From NCBI GenBank assembly GCA_964016885.1, contig CAXHJY010000718.1, positions 1-64,000 on the forward strand: a stretch of 64,000 nt of DNA, in the 5' to 3' direction. Positions 4,592-56,977 of this stretch are shown here, in pieces (position 1 is the stretch's first letter; every line of letters starts with the position of its first letter). The DNA comes from Eledone cirrhosa. Taxonomy: Eukaryota. The notes under the pieces were generated by a model that saw only the letters and a list, made by a program, of their open reading frames with translations, was not told the DNA's origin and did not search any database. The translations under genes were made by a program, and so were the position numbers.

Positions 4592-4614
4592 GGTCGGTGT
4601 GTATATATATATTA

Positions 4615-4651
<37 letters not shown>

Positions 4652-4694
4652 TATGATATTAAATAAATGGAAACTATATTTATAAAACCATATT

Positions 4695-4755
4695 TATTCT
4701 ATTATATATATTTCAATGGTACCAAAACTTTGGTACGCTTTCATCAGATAAAATA
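4695..4755 (-). ncRNA. Type I hammerhead ribozyme motif, family H copy 1 (element about 4652-4800)
   Basis: Minus strand: tattttat-CTGATGA-aagcgtaccaaagttttggtaccatt-GAAA-tatata-TA-atagaata; helix I 8 bp, palindromic helix III. Confidence 0.8.
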
Positions 4756-5031
4756 CAAAGTTTGTTTTATAAAATTTGACATAACCAAGAAAAGATACCT
4801 TCACGGTTCATGTTTTCCTTATACTCCAGAAATCTGTCGAGTGCTCTGAATCAGTTATAAACATTTATATTTGTTGAATTACCAACAAATTGAATATCCC
4901 TTTTGCTTATATATATATATATGTATATACATATATATATGTGTGTATGTATGTATATGTACATATATGTGTGTATATATATAAGTATATATATGGATAT
5001 ACATATATATATATATGGATATACATATATA

Positions 5032-5086
<55 letters not shown>

Positions 5087-5088
5087 CA

Positions 5089-5127
5089 GATAAACAAAAT
5101 AACAGTTTTGTTTCTGACGTCGCTTCT

Positions 5128-5195
<68 letters not shown>

Positions 5196-5238
5196 TATAA
5201 GAAGCGACGTCAGAAACAAAACTGTTATTTTGTTTATC
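5089..5238. mobile_element. Inverted-repeat element (family D) with (TA)n in the loop and an HHR 3'-half motif
   Basis: 42-bp perfect inverted arms; right arm reads gacgtca-GAAA-ca-aaac-tg-TT. Confidence 0.65.
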
Positions 5239-8117: not shown

Positions 8118-8332
8118 ATATTTATTAAAATAACAGATTAAAGTTTAAGCAAAGAATCGCTGCTTTCACCCTTAACGGGATCTTCTGAGTTAAGGGTGAA
8201 AGCAGCGATTCTTTGCTTAAACTTTAATCTTTATTTTAATAAATATTTGCTCTACGGTTCTTATATATTTGATATATATTTATCCTAGTCGAGCCCTCTT
8301 TGGATTTTAGTCTTCAAATTTATTATTATTAC
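8118..8332 (+). mobile_element. Family B fold-back element in (TA)n
   Basis: About 60-bp inverted arms around tttc-acccttaac..gttaagggt-GAAA-gca..tgc-TT; tail shared with 14576-14713 and 21643-21860. Confidence 0.85.
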
Positions 8333-8748: not shown

Positions 8749-9014
8749 AAGTAATTCTGTCGGAAAGGTCCAGCAAAAAAGAGTGCTCTATGTAGGTTAC
8801 AGAGCTTATTAGTTATGTAATAAACAACATAAGATAATTATTTCATTTACCAGTGGTTTCTTGAAAGCAAACAAAATTTGCTTTCAGTCATCAGAATGAA
8901 AAAATCCTGGTGTATTTATTGACAGTGGATTTTAAAAATCCAAGCAAAATTTGTTTGCTTTCAAGAAATCACTGGTAAATGAAATAATTAATTATGCTCT
9001 TTATTACATAACTA
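8746..9014 (-). mobile_element. Family C inverted-repeat element with an HHR-like core lacking helix II
   Basis: Minus strand CTGATGA-ct-GAAA-gcaaa..tttgc-TT (core at 8882-8894); homolog at 54393-54680. Confidence 0.75.
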
Positions 9015-11745: not shown

Positions 11746-11842
<97 letters not shown>

Positions 11843-11882
11843 GATATTAAACAAATGGAAACTATATTTATAAAACCATATT

Positions 11883-11948
11883 TATTTCATTATATATATT
11901 TCAGGGATATCATATTAAAAATATGGTATGCCTTCCTCAGACAAAATA
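11883..11948 (-). ncRNA. Type I hammerhead motif, family H copy 2
   Basis: Minus strand: tattttgt-CTGAGGA-aggcataccatatt..aatatgatatccct-GAAA-tatata-TA-atgaaata. Confidence 0.8.
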
Positions 11949-12026
11949 CAATATATAAACCGTTTTATAAATAAATTTGACATACCTTAAACATTACAAC
12001 TTCCATTTAAAAAGTTGATTTGGTAG

Positions 12027-12071
<45 letters not shown>

Positions 12072-12229
12072 GGTATGATATATATATAATTGCAAAAGCC
12101 AAAAGAAAGAAAGATAAAGGTCTTATTCGGTAAATAATTAATTTTGCCGCCTGTAGTATGATAGGTCAACAGCTTTTTGGACCAGAATTGTGCCAAATAA
12201 TAAAGTGAGAATAATTAGTGGTTGGCACC

Positions 12230-14575: not shown

Positions 14576-14578
<3 letters not shown>

Positions 14579-14713
14579 ATAATAATAAAATTAAAGACTA
14601 AAATCCAAAGAGGGCTCGATAAGGATAAATATATATCAAATATATAAGAACCGTAGAGCAAATATTTATTAAAATAACAGATTAAAGTTTAAGCAAAGAA
14701 TCGCTGCTTTCAC
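14576..14713 (-). mobile_element. Family B element, single arm ending at the GAAA/helix II junction
   Basis: Reverse complement of the 8118-8332 tail; terminates at gctttcac. Confidence 0.8.
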
Positions 14714-21642: not shown

Positions 21643-21650
<8 letters not shown>

Positions 21651-21860
21651 TAACAGATTAAAGTTTAAGCAAAGAATCGCTGCTTTCACCCATAATGGGA
21701 TCTACTGAAACTCCCGTTAAGGGTGAAAGCAGCGATTCTTTGCTTAAACTTGAATCTGTTATTTTAATAAATATTTGCTCTACGGTTCTTATATATTTGA
21801 TATATATTTATCCTTATCGAGCCCTCTTTGGATTTTAGTCTTCAAATTTATTATTATTAC
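21643..21860 (+). mobile_element. Family B fold-back element in (TA)n
   Basis: Near-identical to 8118-8332 with a different loop sequence. Confidence 0.85.
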
Positions 21861-23911: not shown

Positions 23912-23973
23912 TCAAAATTTTCAATACAAAATGATGTAGAGTTTCAATATCCATTTATTATGGCTAAATAATG

Positions 23974-24028
23974 AGTCTTGTTACACAGGAGTTTCACTTG
24001 CGCACACACGGGCTCGTCAGACAATACT
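23974..24028 (-). ncRNA. Type I hammerhead motif, family J (truncated homolog at about 28120-28200)
   Basis: Minus strand: agtattgt-CTGACGA-gcccgtgtgtgcgcaagt-GAAA-ctcctgtg-TA-acaagact; helix I pairs at 7 of 8 positions. Confidence 0.65.
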
Positions 24029-24046
24029 GTTCTTGGCCATAATATA

Positions 24047-24086
<40 letters not shown>

Positions 24087-27970: not shown

Positions 27971-28227
27971 GAGAACTGGAAGGGAGAAATATTTAAATAT
28001 TTATTGTGAAGCTTAGTGGGAGTAGTAGTAGTGGTGGTGGTGGTGGTGGTGGTGGTGGTGGTGGTAGGAGGAGGAGGAGGAGGAGAGGAAGAAGAAGGAC
28101 GAGAGCAAAGAGTACTCAATACCGAAGTAGAGTTTCAATATTCATTTATTAAGGCTAAATGATGAGTCTTGTTACACTGGAGTTTCACTTGTGTGCACAC
28201 AGAGAAAATGAGAAAGAGATATAGCGG

Positions 28228-29745: not shown

Positions 29746-30764
29746 ATAATGGGAATAATATAATATTGGTGTATACTAAAGTTTATTGTCGCTATATTAC
29801 TTATTATTTACATTTATTGCATGGGGAAATATTTTTAGGAATATATTAAAACTGTAAAAGAATATTGTTTTAAATTAGAATTAATATATTATTAGATATT
29901 GAAGTTTCAAAGGAAAATGACATAATATAAGATTAAATCTAAAGAAAATGTTAATATCTAAATAAAATAAAGTAGAAAATTAAATTAAATTAAGTTAAAC
30001 TGTATTAACGGTATAAAAAAAGATGTTCGTTCGATAGTAATTGTAAATTTGATGTGGAAAGAAGTTTCTGGATTAAGTGAGAACAACCTGAAAGTTAAAT
30101 TGATAAGGAAAATGTGTGATTAAAATGAAAATACAATTAAAATGTAAAAGAAATAAAATTATTAACTTAAATTGAATTAAGTTAAACACTTAAAATATAT
30201 AAGAGAAAGTATGTGTAATATTGAAAAGGGATTTAAAGAAGTTAGCGGAGAGGATGTTTGTGGATTAAAGAAGGATAATATTAAAGATGTAAGATTAAAT
30301 TAAAATAAAATTTTATACTTAAATTTAAGTTAAATAAAAAATTTATATTAAATTAATTTAAATTAATAAGGTATATAAAATGAACTTTGTTTTACAGTAC
30401 TCGAAAGTGTAAATTCGAAGAGTGATCTAAAGATGAAGAGGAAACGAAACGATGGTTGCTGATTAAGAGGAAATAAGTTTAATGGAAAAAGGATAATCAG
30501 GACGATTAAAAGGTTAATGAGGTGGAGGGGAGAGGAGGATAAAAATGTGGCTTAAATAGAATTGGGAAAAGGCTTCTAAGACTTAAATGGAAAATCAAGA
30601 AAAGCGTAGGTATCAGGATTAATAAATAAACGGAGTTAGTGAAGTTAACCCTAATAAGCACGAGCAAAACCTTAATAGGGATTAATAAGGGATTAAGTCA
30701 TTCTTGCACGATGGAAAGTATAACTATCCTATTTGCTAAAGATGATATCCTCAATATACATAAT

Positions 30765-37880: not shown

Positions 37881-38145
37881 TCCATGAGACGTAACATTTA
37901 AGCGTAGGGGCAGAGGAGTGGAGTCCTAGGCTGTGGGCTGGTCCGTCTCTCTCCAGGTTTCAGTGTAGCCAAATCCTTTCAGACAAACGTTAGAGAGAAA
38001 GAGATATAGAAGAATCCTCCCACTTCGGAAATGGTATCTCATCGACGTTGAAAGGATGAAAGACAAAATTCACTTCCGAGAGTCGGAACGAATACCGGTC
38101 ATTCATACATACATACATACATACATACATACATACATACATACA

Positions 38146-38174
<29 letters not shown>

Positions 38175-38176
<2 letters not shown>

Positions 38177-38725
38177 GATATGGGACAGGAAGAAGAAAGC
38201 ATGCACAGTAGTGGAAATTAGCTGCCCAGCAGATGCCAATATAATATCAAAGATTAGTGAAAAGGAGAATATTTATGCAGAACTGATGAGAAATCTGCAG
38301 ATACTGCACCCTGATTACACCTTCAGATTTATGCCTGTTATTATTGGGGCACTGGGGTATGTTAGTAACTGCCTCAATACAAATCTTGAGAAGCTAGGCT
38401 TCACAGGGACAGAAAGAACACAACTAGTTAGGAAATTACAAGTACAATCCATTAATGGAACAGTAAAAATATGTAAAATATTCCAAAACTGTTGCATCTA
38501 ATAACTACATATACACATGTACAGATGCAAAGCATATACACATTCACACACACAACTCAAAACATCCACATCCACACATACAATAAAATCCATATCTACA
38601 CATGCATGCATACATACCTACCTAGTTGATGTTGTGTAAATTCCAATGAGAGAGTCTTGTAACTATGTTAGAAACCGACTCTCTCTCTATTGGTAAAAAT
38701 TTGTGAAATTATAAAACCAGAAGAA
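38175..38725 (+). mobile_element. 3' end of an RLE-endonuclease non-LTR retrotransposon (R4/Dong-like) in a (CATA)n microsatellite
   Basis: [42 protein letters not shown] matches the restriction-like endonuclease C-terminus; (CATA)n on both sides. Confidence 0.8.
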
Positions 38726-41761: not shown

Positions 41762-41869
41762 GCTCTGCCGTCGGGGTCATACTTTTTTCCTATTACCCAC
41801 TCGACTACCCTAAGTATTGAGTACTCTGGTGCGTTATGGTCCATCTGGTTCCTTACTACACCTCCTTCG

Positions 41870-43897: not shown

Positions 43898-43954
43898 TAT
43901 ATGTATATATATATATATATATACATATATAAATATATATATATATATATAAAT

Positions 43955-44130
43955 AGGAACCAGTAAGACCCCCGCAGCTGAGCTCAAGCCGTTTCGACGG
44001 CTAATTCTGGAATCGGCTTGAGCTCAGCTGCCGGGGTCTTACTGGTTCCTATTACCCACTCTACTACCCCAAGTATTGAGTACTTTGGTGCGTTATGGTC
44101 CACCTGGTTCCTTACCACATTTCCTTCGTT
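43955..44130 (+). mobile_element. Family A fold-back element
   Basis: Inverted arms aggaaccagtaagaccc / gggtcttactggttcct plus the family tail. Confidence 0.85.
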
Positions 44131-49429: not shown

Positions 49430-49537
49430 GAAAAGATTCAGGACCCCGACGGCTGAGCTCCAGCCGTTTCGACAGCTAGATCCGGATCTAGCTGTCGAAG
49501 TGGCCGGAGCTCAGCCGTCGGGGTCCTGAATCTTTTC
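49430..49537. mobile_element. Family A fold-back palindrome (subfamily with a gacagctagatc helix II)
   Basis: Near-perfect 108-bp palindrome flanked by (TA)n. Confidence 0.85.
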
Positions 49538-50242: not shown

Positions 50243-51070
50243 GGTGGATTGGCAGTATCGGTAGAGGGTCGGACGCCATGTTTTGCAGCAAAGAGTTACG
50301 GCCTTTCATCCTTACGGGGGTCGATAAAATAAAGTACCAGTAATGCACTGGGGTAATTGCTGGTCTTGTGCCAAAAGTAGAAACAATTATTTCAAAGGGT
50401 CGGACGCCATGCTTTGCAGCATAGTTATGGCCCTTTACTTTCTGAGTTTAAATCCTGCCAAGGTTAACTTTGCCTTTCATCCTTACGGGGTCGATAAAAT
50501 AAAGTACCAGTAATGCACTGGGGTAATTGCTGGTCTTGTGCCAAAAGTAGAAACAATTATTTCAAAGGGTCGGACGCCATGCTTTGCAGCATAGTTATGG
50601 CCCTTTACTTTCTGAGTTTAAATCCTGCCAAGGTTAACTTTGCCTTTCATCCTTACGGGGTCGATAAAATAAAGTACCAGTAATGCACTGGGGTAATTGC
50701 TGGTCTTGTGCCAAAAGTAGAAACAATTATTTCAAAGGGTCGGACGCCATGCTTTGCAGCATAGTTATGGCCCTTTACTTTCTGAGTTTAAATCCTGCCA
50801 AGGTTAACTTTGCCTTTCATCCTTACGGGGTCGATAAAATAAAGTACCAGTAATGCACTGGGGTAATTGCTGGTCTTGTGCCAAAAGTAGAAACAATTAT
50901 TTCAAAGGGTCGGACGCCATGCTTTGCAGCATAGTTATGGCCCTTTACTTTCTGAGTTTAAATCCTGCCAAGGTTAACTTTGCCTTTCATCCTTACGGGG
51001 TCGATAAAATAAAGTACCAGTAATGCACTGGAATAATTGCTGGCCTTGTGCCAAAAGTAGAAACAATTAT
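50243..51070 (+). repeat. SINE-derived tandem array: four near-identical 170-bp units
   Basis: ttcaaagggtcggacgccatg starts at 50391, 50561, 50731 and 50901. Confidence 0.95.
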
Positions 51071-51399
51071 TTAATCCGTGACTATTACAACAATGCTAAG
51101 TCACAGACGTATTAACATATACCTCTGAAATAATCGAAGATTCGAATTAACTTAGATATTACATAAATTGTCTCCAGAAATCAGGCTGATTCACAGTAGA
51201 TAGATTATTTTCCATTTAAGACGCCAAGAATTGTTCCAGTGGCTCTAAATATTATATTAGACAGGTTTCAGATTAATTTTATGCACAATTTCATGAACAT
51301 GATTGGAATAATTATAAATTTAACAAGTACATCTTTAACAGAGATATTAGATTACACATATTTATAAGTATTTATGTTAATATGAATGGATATATATAC

Positions 51400-52178: not shown

Positions 52179-52424
52179 TACTCTGGTGCGTTATGGTCCA
52201 TCTGGTTCCTTACCACAACTCCTTCGTTATATATATATAACGAAGGAGTTGTGGTAAGGAACCAGATGGACCATAACGCACCAGAGTACTCAATACTTAG
52301 GGTAGTAGAGTTGGTAATAGGAAAAAGTATGACCCCGACGGCAGAGCTCAAGCCGTTTCGACGGCTATTTCTGGACTGAAATAGCCGTCGAAACGGCTTG
52401 AGCTCTGCCGTCGGGGTCATACTT

Positions 52425-54392: not shown

Positions 54393-54398
<6 letters not shown>

Positions 54399-54678
54399 TG
54401 TAATAAACAAAATAAGGCAATTATTCCATTTACCAGTGGTTTCTTAAAAGCAAAAAATGTTGCTTTCAATCCTCAGAATGAAAAAATCCTGGTCTCTAGA
54501 GACCAGGATTTTTTCATTTTTTTTTTCATTCTGAGGATTGAAAGCAAATTTTTTGTTTTTAAGAAACCACTGGTAAATGGAATAATTGCCTTATGTTGTT
54601 TATTACATAACTATTAAGCTCTGTTACCTACATAGAGCACTCTTTTTTCCTGGACTTTTCGGACGGAATTACTTCATT

Positions 54679-54680
<2 letters not shown>
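54393..54680. mobile_element. Family C palindrome with helix-II-less HHR-like cores in both arms
   Basis: CTGAGGA-tt-GAAA at 54531-54543 (+) and mirrored tcctcag at 54470-54476; palindrome centre cctggtctctagagaccagg. Confidence 0.8.
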
Positions 54681-54750
<70 letters not shown>

Positions 54751-54862
54751 GAGATTATATTTAATTTTAAAATGTTTATAACTGATATAAAGCACTCAAC
54801 AATTTAGTAGAGTAAATATACAATATATTAATAAATGGAAACTATATTTATAAAACCATATT

Positions 54863-54928
54863 TATTTTATTATACATATTTCAAGGGAAACCAAGGCAAA
54901 TTATGGTGCGCTTTCATCAGATAAAATA
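54863..54928 (-). ncRNA. Type I hammerhead motif, family H copy 3
   Basis: Minus strand: tattttat-CTGATGA-aagcgcacca..tggtttccctt-GAAA-tatgta-TA-ataaaata; perfect 8-bp helix I. Confidence 0.8.
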
Positions 54929-55034
54929 CAGATCTGTTTTATAAATAAATATTGACATACCCGGAAAAAAAAGACAACCTTAACGGGTGGAGCTTCCTAT
55001 ATATATATATATACGAAAAGAGTCAGGACCCCGA

Positions 55035-55139
<105 letters not shown>

Positions 55140-56488: not shown

Positions 56489-56691
56489 GAAAAGAGTCAG
56501 GACCCCGACGTCTGAGCTCCAGCCGTTTCGACAGCTAGATCCGAACTCAGATCTAGCTGTCGAAATGGCCGGAGCTCAGCCGTCAGGGTCCTGACTCTTT
56601 TCATATATATATATATTACCCACTCTACTACCCGAAGCATCGAGTACTCAGGTGCGTTATGGTCCACCTGGTATCTTACCACACTTTCTTT
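56489..56691 (+). mobile_element. Family A fold-back element with (TA)n between palindrome and tail
   Basis: gaaaagagtcaggaccc / gggtcctgactcttttc arms, followed by the family tail. Confidence 0.85.
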
Positions 56692-56749: not shown

Positions 56750-56874
56750 TAGTACGCTGGAAGGTAATATCCGCAGTGGTAGAGCACTCAGTCCATGGGA
56801 CGAGTTAGGTAGAAGTGGTTACACAACAGTTAGTTCACCATACCGAGAACTGTTCCGTAAAACCATGTCTATTA

Positions 56875-56912
56875 CGAGCTGAGGCTCCGCTAAGGTGAAA
56901 CAATTGTTCTCG
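56875..56912 (+). ncRNA. Type I hammerhead motif (A9>C variant) in family K inverted element 56750-56946
   Basis: cgag-CTGAGGc-tccgctaaggt-GAAA-caattg-TT-ctcg; palindromic helix III; 41-bp inverted arms at 56810-56850 and 56906-56946. Confidence 0.65.
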
Positions 56913-56941
56913 GTATGGTGAACTAACTGTTGTGTAACCAC

Positions 56942-56977
<36 letters not shown>

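Follow-up and report, generated by a model that had tools for sequence, protein, structure and literature searches.

The closest described systems are the termini of Penelope-like elements (PLEs). Their pseudo-LTRs (pLTRs) have been reported as 181-218 bp long, with palindromes at the 5' ends and with solo copies (PMC3846280), and their insertions may carry an optional tail and an adjacent inverted, 5'-truncated copy (PMC8557442). Among these elements, the Hydra clade is described as combining canonical hammerheads with insertion into (TA)n and a short palindromic stem III, and as having a member in Octopus; Naiads, which favour (TA)n too, are described as lacking the canonical hammerhead (PMC8557442). 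The hammerheads of metazoan PLEs were found to cut weakly and as dimers (PMC4209133), and an axolotl hammerhead with a 2-bp helix III similar to the one described below reached 22% cleavage as a monomer and more as a dimer (PMC7229834). For a Poseidon element of the anole, reverse transcription was reported to start at either of two internal positions, which delimit the tail and lie close to an AC-rich stem-loop, with uncut RNA as the main template and a hammerhead that cut only when the protein was present (PMC11167929). A recent repeat annotation of Octopus vulgaris lists Penelope families, and its main text mentions neither ribozymes nor hammerheads (PMC13282606).

An earlier note on the window, that is, the whole stretch of 64,000 nucleotides of Eledone cirrhosa DNA that was analysed, had reported four dispersed hammerhead motifs, here termed family H, at 4695 (copy A), 11883 (copy B), 54863 (copy C) and 63357 (copy D). 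All four were found at these coordinates, all on the minus strand, and share 84-90% pairwise identity over their common body (Table 1). Each copy runs in the order helix I, CUGA(U/G)GA, helix II, GAAA, a six-base stretch, UA and helix I, so arranged that three helices surround the core and helix I is open. The core is that of a type I hammerhead (C3 U4 G5 A6 N7 G8 A9, G12 A13 A14, A15.1-U16.1 and H17) in all four copies, and the 12 fixed letters (CUGA-GA, GAAA and UA) are invariant, which bears out the earlier statement that the core is intact. The 8-bp helix I was likewise confirmed, being paired in 32 of 32 cells of the alignment, four of them as G-U; only copy C has eight Watson-Crick pairs.

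Helix II had been described as variable but paired. This was true of the family as a whole, with 32 of 36 cells paired over nine pairs (a constant C-C mismatch was excluded from the nine), but is weak for copy C, the hammerhead fold of which lies at +0.6 kcal/mol compared to -7.1 kcal/mol for its best fold. When a structure set by hand was laid on the alignment of the four sequences, three helix II pairs were changed on both sides. Out of 500 shuffles, 32 reached three such two-sided changes and 11 reached the covariation score; covariation among four related sequences is, at this level, suggestive only. The third helix II pair of copy A is broken by a private change at position 4717, where the pairing base accounts for 585,743 of 591,613 of the contig depth in the public run X1 (~99%) and for 2019 of 2067 plus-mate reads in the public run X10. 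The pair closing helix II in family H is A-U, and the usual G10.1-C11.1 is absent. Helix III is just 2 bp long in the four copies and paired in all eight cells over these two pairs. The stretch that forms it reads AUAUAUAU or AUAUGUAU, each of which is self-complementary; it is all-AU, and the triplet at the cut site is AUA, which carries a penalty for hammerhead cleavage.

Table 1. Positions in the window of the family H hammerheads, the elements that contain them and the repeats around them
Feature	Position	Strand	Details
Type I hammerhead, copy A	4695..4755	-	helix I 4748-4755 with 4695-4702; core 4741-4747 (start 4747); helix II 4715-4740; GAAA 4711-4714; palindromic helix III; predicted cut after UA between 4703 and 4702
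Type I hammerhead, copy B	11883..11948	-	core CUGAGGA, start 11940; longest helix II; predicted cut after UA between 11891 and 11890
Type I hammerhead, copy C	54863..54928	-	core start 54920; weakest helix II; predicted cut after UA between 54871 and 54870
Type I hammerhead, copy D	63357..63421	-	core start 63413; predicted cut after UA between 63365 and 63364
Family H copy A, tail-less, 166 bp	4653..4818	-	3' end joins (TA)n; 5' end head-to-head with inverted tail piece
Tail-only piece	4819..4908	+	opposite orientation; ends in (TA)n; homologous to copy C tail
Tail hairpin ACTC-CAGA-AA-TCTG-TC-GAGT-GCT	4823..4845	+	in the tail-only piece beside copy A
Family H copy B, tail-less	11842..12027	-	(TA)n on both sides
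Family H copy C, sole copy with body and tail in line	54748..54997	-	(TA)n on both sides
3' tail of copy C, about 75 nt	54748..54821	-	hairpin at 54791-54813
Family H copy D, tail-less	63317..63496	-	(TA)n on both sides
Copy D inverted stub, head-to-head	63521..63548	+	begins at the copy D start nucleotide, with a TA tract in between; joined to a family K copy at its end
(TA)n tract at tail-less end of copy A	4602..4650	.	
Further (TA)n tracts	4908-5199, 11770-11841, 12028-12088, 54688-54747, 54998-55013, 63278-63316, 63497-63520		
Family K	1729-1897, 41762-41868, 43952-44127, 49431-49536, 52179-52423, 55014-55037, 56490-56690, 63548-63734		

As monomers, the four copies do not favour the hammerhead, which lay 4.3-7.7 kcal/mol above the best fold in every case. 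Two hammerheads joined in a dimer reached -20.2, -17.8, -10.4 and -19.6 kcal/mol for copies A to D, compared to -16.8, -13.8, -14.2 and -17.0 kcal/mol for two free monomers in their best folds; the double hammerhead was thus the better structure in three of the four copies, and in all four the unconstrained dimer fold lay lower still. Since helix III is a 2-bp palindrome, cleavage is likely to need a dimer or the help of a protein, and the hammerhead is predicted to cut as a dimer through the AUAU(A/G)UAU palindrome, or with protein help. The lone genomic copies are likely inert, given these fold energies and the weak, dimer-dependent cutting of known PLE hammerheads. Copy C, which the earlier note had singled out for a cleavage assay, is the least stable of the four and the poorest choice for it.

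The AU-rich helices form readily, and the z-scores of the four hammerhead stretches ranged only from -1.33 to +0.45, as might be expected if the motifs were chance matches in AT-rich sequence or an assembly artefact. Against this stands a descriptor search (helix I of at least 7 bp, helices II and III of at least 2 bp each), which returned six sites in the window, four in family H and two in another family, but none in any of 100 block-wise dinucleotide shuffles. Moreover, family H was abundant in public sequencing data, with matches in 6913, 556 and 47 contigs and in 27,336 reads; it occurred in four of four runs, from up to three studies, although the read depth may stem largely from a few RAD loci and does not equal copy number. 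The shuffles and the presence in public runs refute chance or artefact, whose probability is negligible. No Rfam hammerhead family matched copies C and D up to E = 10 when these were scanned alone, and none was among 150 of the 456 matches listed for the whole window, where many microRNA-family matches, all under their cut-offs, represent TA-repeat noise. Exact-pattern scans with the conserved 3' flank gave no matches in metagenome contigs, viral contigs or prokaryote genomes. The public sequencing runs listed as containing the sequence included none of RNA, a result that has no bearing on expression.

Conservation was assessed across the four copies and in four public sequencing runs mapped to 4652-4905 at 80% likeness. 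In the core, 12 of 13 columns including N7 were invariant, which exceeds helix II (15 of 31) and the upstream flank (20 of 49). The expectation that the core would be better kept than its surroundings thus held on the 5' side and in helix II, but not on the 3' side, where 32 of the 34 columns past helix I were invariant as well. Because the 3' flank is equally conserved, an invariant core is not by itself specific evidence of catalysis, and the flank is probably a cis signal too. In the four runs, no variant fell on a fixed core letter among 40 of the 76 variant rows listed; among those listed, a single 3' flank variant was found, at 4664, and the helix I variants kept or improved pairing.

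The proposal that the ribozyme was functional in the source elements therefore draws support from the invariant core, from the compensated helix II and from the lack of core variants among the 40 of 76 rows, but not from any advantage of the core over the 3' flank. It is likely that a type I hammerhead has been under selection in the parent lineages. A different reading would have the core of a PLE terminus serve as a protein-binding fold that was never an efficient RNA cutter, even in the parent. The 3' flank conserved as strongly as the core, the energetically unfavoured active fold and the copying of four of four templates across the uncut site would all suit such a role, as would the poor in vitro cleavage of metazoan PLE hammerheads (PMC4209133) and the observation that the anole element still inserted unimpaired when its hammerhead was mutated (PMC11167929). 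However, all 12 catalytic letters, the compensated helix II pairs and a palindrome compatible with dimers have been kept, and cutting by the hammerhead of the anole PLE has been seen in the presence of its protein (PMC11167929), which together make this explanation unlikely.

Each hammerhead sits inside an element of 166-250 bp that has two alternative 3' ends, both of which meet (TA)n. Copies A, B and D are tail-less and enter (TA)n about 40 nt past helix I, which leaves family H with three tail-less copies, one tailed copy and one tail-only piece. The earlier note had placed every copy next to or near (TA)n through a shared atattaa..aaatggaaac end. This applied to three of the four copies, at a distance of 1-3 nt, but in copy C the same end lies 75 nt away because the element runs on into a tail, and it is the tail that ends in (TA)n. 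None of the eight free ends of the H pieces was more than 3 nt away from a (TA)5+ tract, whereas 4% of non-TA positions have one within 5 nt; the tail-less point inside copy C, tested as a ninth position, was 75 nt off. No target duplication could be read at the ends.

The public runs gave a similar picture of body and tail. Among 15 of the 34 joints listed, eight connected 4653-4662 with 4819-4839 on opposite strands, as expected for a body and tail that are collinear, and the loose contig ends before 4653/4662 and behind 4902 were TA runs. Two other assignments, of 4819-4908 as the end of an ORF and of 54748-54821 as an inversion, were dropped, as the joints in the public runs together with homology identify both as tail. 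Copies A and D each have an inverted, 5'-truncated copy adjoining their 5' end. Contig joints from 4694-4798 to 4830-4886 represent the arrangement of copy A with other break points, and same-strand skips such as 4750-4830 and 4773-4831 represent inversions with varied break points. At 5089-5238, 52194-52273 and 63471-63548, moreover, a TA tract forms the centre of an inverted repeat, which looks as though two copies had joined via self-complementary TA ends.

The architecture is best explained if family H consists of retro-copied terminal modules (a solo pLTR with or without tail) of a TA-targeting PLE, most likely of the Hydra clade, an interpretation in which we have good confidence. It could also be asked whether the copies are monomers of non-LTR retrozymes, in which tandem repeats yield small circular RNAs that are reverse-transcribed and reinserted. 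A type I hammerhead with a 2-bp helix III and a unit length within the 150-450 bp range are features of these elements (PMC7229834), for which a derivation from PLE pLTRs has been argued and solo copies are held to be possible (bioRxiv 10.64898/2026.07.22.740005). None of the four H copies is in tandem in the window, though; the loose ends behind the tail lead into TA and not into another unit, no head-to-tail joint was present among the 15 of 34 listed, and short go-back joints were seen in 2-6 reads only. As the tail and the head-to-head inversions are PLE insertion features, a retrozyme origin appears very improbable. The partial tandem of direct pLTRs that surrounds the ORF in PLEs was not seen in the 64-kb window either, where only solo copies occurred.

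For the retro-copied PLE termini, a mechanism can be inferred by analogy with the anole Poseidon element. The GIY-YIG endonuclease of the parent element would nick (TA)n, and the reverse transcriptase would prime within the uncut RNA at either of two positions. Priming 5-9 nt ahead of the tail hairpin described below would give a tail-less copy, and priming about 40 nt past it a tailed one. Copying would then pass through the hammerhead and halt about 70-90 nt beyond the core, resulting in inserts of 166-250 bp, and priming from both target strands would result in head-to-head pairs.

Measured from an anchor common to the four copies, their 5' ends lie 38, 43, 38 and 39 nt upstream. In a toy model of random truncation, no more than 0.14% of draws placed all four ends within 6 nt of each other, and 0.06-4.6% did so for three of them, in a test that was chosen after the data had been seen. 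Because the ends cluster in a way that is unlikely under the toy truncation, they point to a defined RNA 5' end, which could be a pLTR start site or that of a short master copy. The latter would make family H a short non-autonomous family, with master copies of ~260 nt that have a fixed 5' end and are transcribed from inside TA tracts, and with a Hydra-type PLE supplying the protein that moves them in trans. It would account for four 5' ends at 38-43 nt from the anchor in copies that are only 84-90% identical, for copy D and its inverted stub beginning at the same base, and for the lack of any ORF remnant upstream of every H copy. On the other hand, a fixed pLTR length with a 5' palindrome is known for autonomous PLEs (PMC3846280), and a transcript begun in the pLTR would yield an identical fixed end. 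The first ~20 nt of copy B, furthermore, do not align with the others, the sister families J and K break elsewhere, and the inverted copies in contigs vary in break point. A non-autonomous family is possible but rather doubtful; it overlaps with the reading as terminal modules of a PLE and differs from it solely in the template.

The tail of family H opens with RCTC, an inner stem-loop, a bulge of 1-2 nt and GAGYRCT, and this hairpin lies between the two 3' ends. The pattern RCTC-stem-loop-GAGYRCT was found 13 times in the window, compared to a mean of 0.36 and a maximum of 3 in 100 shuffles. Of these matches, 12 belong to five TA-embedded families (two in H, two in J, six in K, one in M and one in N). 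The remaining one, at 30400-30423 on the minus strand, is without an inner stem and outside the five families, and may be a chance match. In the tail-less copies of H, J, K and N, (TA)n begins 4-10 nt ahead of the hairpin, and the tail ends 36-45 nt after it in nine of the 12 matches (27, 62 and 69 nt in the others). One K copy with a TA tract at this position was excluded from the geometry, and the partner list contains a few chance 12-mer matches. The hairpins of different families were not aligned in register by MAFFT.

When the six published Hydra consensus sequences were inspected by eye, the strict hairpin was found in three of them, with four matches, located in the tails of Hydra-2_Amil and Hydra-2_Ajap and twice at the start of Hydra-1_Ajap. 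By the same inspection, Hydra-1_Crog has two variant hairpins, and the hairpin is absent from Hydra-1_Amil and from Hydra-1_Obim, the Octopus one, both of which end at the tail-less point. In a control with Naiad and Chlamys sequences, two strict and two wobble hairpins were found among 30 of the 44 GAGYRCT places listed, one match being at the start of Naiad_Ptep. By this rough control, in which the Naiad and Chlamys files are together ~30 times larger than the Hydra set by row count, such matches are near chance level. No description of the hairpin motif was found in the literature searched, which was mainly open-access main texts.

A possible explanation, put forward tentatively, is that Hydra-type PLEs share a short tail hairpin of conserved sequence that would be bound by their RT-endonuclease and would set both internal priming sites, and that family H spreads as a fixed-length module of 180-260 bp. 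Priming would then take place 4-10 nt before and about 36-45 nt after the hairpin, with which families H, J, K and N, which have unrelated bodies, agree, and the fifth family, M, has the hairpin; somewhat less than even confidence is placed in this explanation. If it is true, the hairpin would direct the writing of DNA into TA microsatellites as a portable RNA signal, and its sequence could serve as a tag by which to classify PLE fragments without an ORF. A single Poseidon element is the only one in which the internal priming sites of a PLE protein have been mapped. A candidate for guiding the choice of priming site is the hairpin, which several families conserve at a constant distance from the two ends and which can be mutated directly.

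Full hammerhead cores are present in J and M, and only the 3' half in the K and N copies present. Family J (54396-54680 and 8749-8984) is a second hammerhead family, with cores at 54531 on the plus strand and at 54476 and 8894 on the minus strand; it has head-to-head tail-less and tailed copies in (TA)n, and its helix III and tail hairpin are closer to those of published Hydra elements than are those of H. Family K consists of frequent TA-embedded palindromic repeats with a 3' half hammerhead (GAAA, a 5-bp helix III with a palindromic loop, and a GUC site) and the tail hairpin. Its inversion points lie within helix II, and its copy at 56622 is tailed and has a TA tract at the tail-less point. 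Family M (23930-24070 and 28100-28190, minus strand) has a core at 24020, a tail hairpin at 28133 and a short inverted tail-less piece. Family N (56754-56945 and 262-370) comprises an inverted tail-less piece and a tailed piece with a hairpin at 56805, and its inverted part contains the half hammerhead GAA-ACAATTGT-T. A further TA-flanked family, at 8118-8330, 14578-14713 and 21645-21858, shows head-to-head inversions whose break points lie close to what may be a degenerate hammerhead core; the tail hairpin had no match in it.

Several other features of the window were observed. On the minus strand, an open frame of 594 aa at 61574-63355, with an RT and a PHD finger, has its 5' end against the TA tract of copy D; we take this frame to be RTE-like. 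Copy D was considered as interrupting an RTE element, which was dropped since 63771-64000 does not continue that frame. Broken frames are present at 38052-38501 on the plus strand and 63771-64000 on the minus strand; they look like the C-terminal part of what we presume to be an R4/Dong-type LINE, and Pfam gave no match in their two scanned segments. A U6atac snRNA match (71.1 bits, cut-off 33) lies at 58123-58247 on the plus strand; its 3' end is without a U run, which suggests a gene variant or a retrocopy. At 50301-51072, the most abundant SINE-like repeat of the window forms a near-perfect tandem of 4.5 copies (170 bp, 99%).

A Pfam scan of 50 of the 179 complex six-frame segments in the window identified an RTE-type RT together with a PHD finger, and a C2H2 finger, besides a weak match of an unrelated kind, and neither a GIY-YIG domain nor a PLE-type RT was among them; a scan of the window for PLE ORF motifs likewise gave no match, and none near the four copies. 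An EN+ PLE is characterised by a single ORF that joins a telomerase-like RT to a GIY-YIG endonuclease, and the Hydra clade by RWK and DKT motifs, a CxCX5C linker and an endonuclease without CCHH. Because no ORF was found near the copies, membership in PLEs and in a clade is argued here on non-coding features. By these, the identity of family H as a PLE-derived terminus is very probable, and its placement in the Hydra clade is favoured with moderate confidence. Family H has a hammerhead, the canonical form of which Naiads are described as lacking, and its sequence showed no likeness by eye to the starts of cephalopod Naiad consensus sequences. Insertion into (TA)n is not exclusive to Hydra, as many Naiads have it too, and the Hydra assignment itself is not exclusive of Neptune, Nematis or Poseidon, since the consensus sequences compared were those of Hydra, Naiad and Chlamys elements.

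Family H is most probably a new family of hammerhead-bearing PLE termini and an ordinary kind of element: as hammerheads of PLE termini have been published since 2014 and TA-targeting Hydra elements since 2021, it adds one more family. Its natural helix II variants and AU-only palindromic helix III provide a small test set for dimer-dependent cleavage, and the tail hairpin common to the families is the part worth following.

Compared to the Hydra elements described by Craig et al. 2021 (PMC8557442; Hydra-1_Obim, Hydra-2_Ajap and Hydra-2_Amil), family H likewise has a type I hammerhead near its 3' end with a short palindromic stem III. Its insertion in (TA)n also agrees with the Hydra clade, a group of C-terminal EN+ PLEs in which the hairpin is strict in three of six consensus sequences and variant in a fourth. 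It differs from the hammerheads listed in that account, which are mostly GUH, in its AUA triplet, all-AU helix III and longer, bulged helix II, and its 3' end has no match by eye to that of Hydra-1_Obim. The metazoan PLE min-HHR (Cervera and de la Pena 2014, PMC4209133) is similarly of type I, with a long helix II and a palindromic 15.2-16.2 region, and is described as occurring mostly as single dispersed motifs with high within-genome variability; in contrast to it, family H retains 2 bp of helix III and a loop of 4 nt, its helix I has 8 bp, and the G10.1-C11.1 pair is missing. Metazoan non-LTR retrozymes (Cervera and de la Pena 2020, PMC7229834) share with it the type I hammerhead and a non-coding unit of 150-450 bp, whereas family H is without a tandem array in the window and has a PLE-type tail and inversions. 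The insertion units of PLEs (Arkhipova et al. 2013, PMC3846280; Frangieh et al. 2024, PMC11167929) resemble it in having two 3' ends, head-to-head inversion, solo pLTRs of about 180-220 bp, a template with an uncut hammerhead and a stem-loop near the start of reverse transcription. The available portions of these two accounts do not report the hairpin sequence that H shares with its kin across families. The tail of family H, at 75-90 nt, is longer than the 30-40 nt of those units, and its ends lie in (TA)n, without a readable target duplication.
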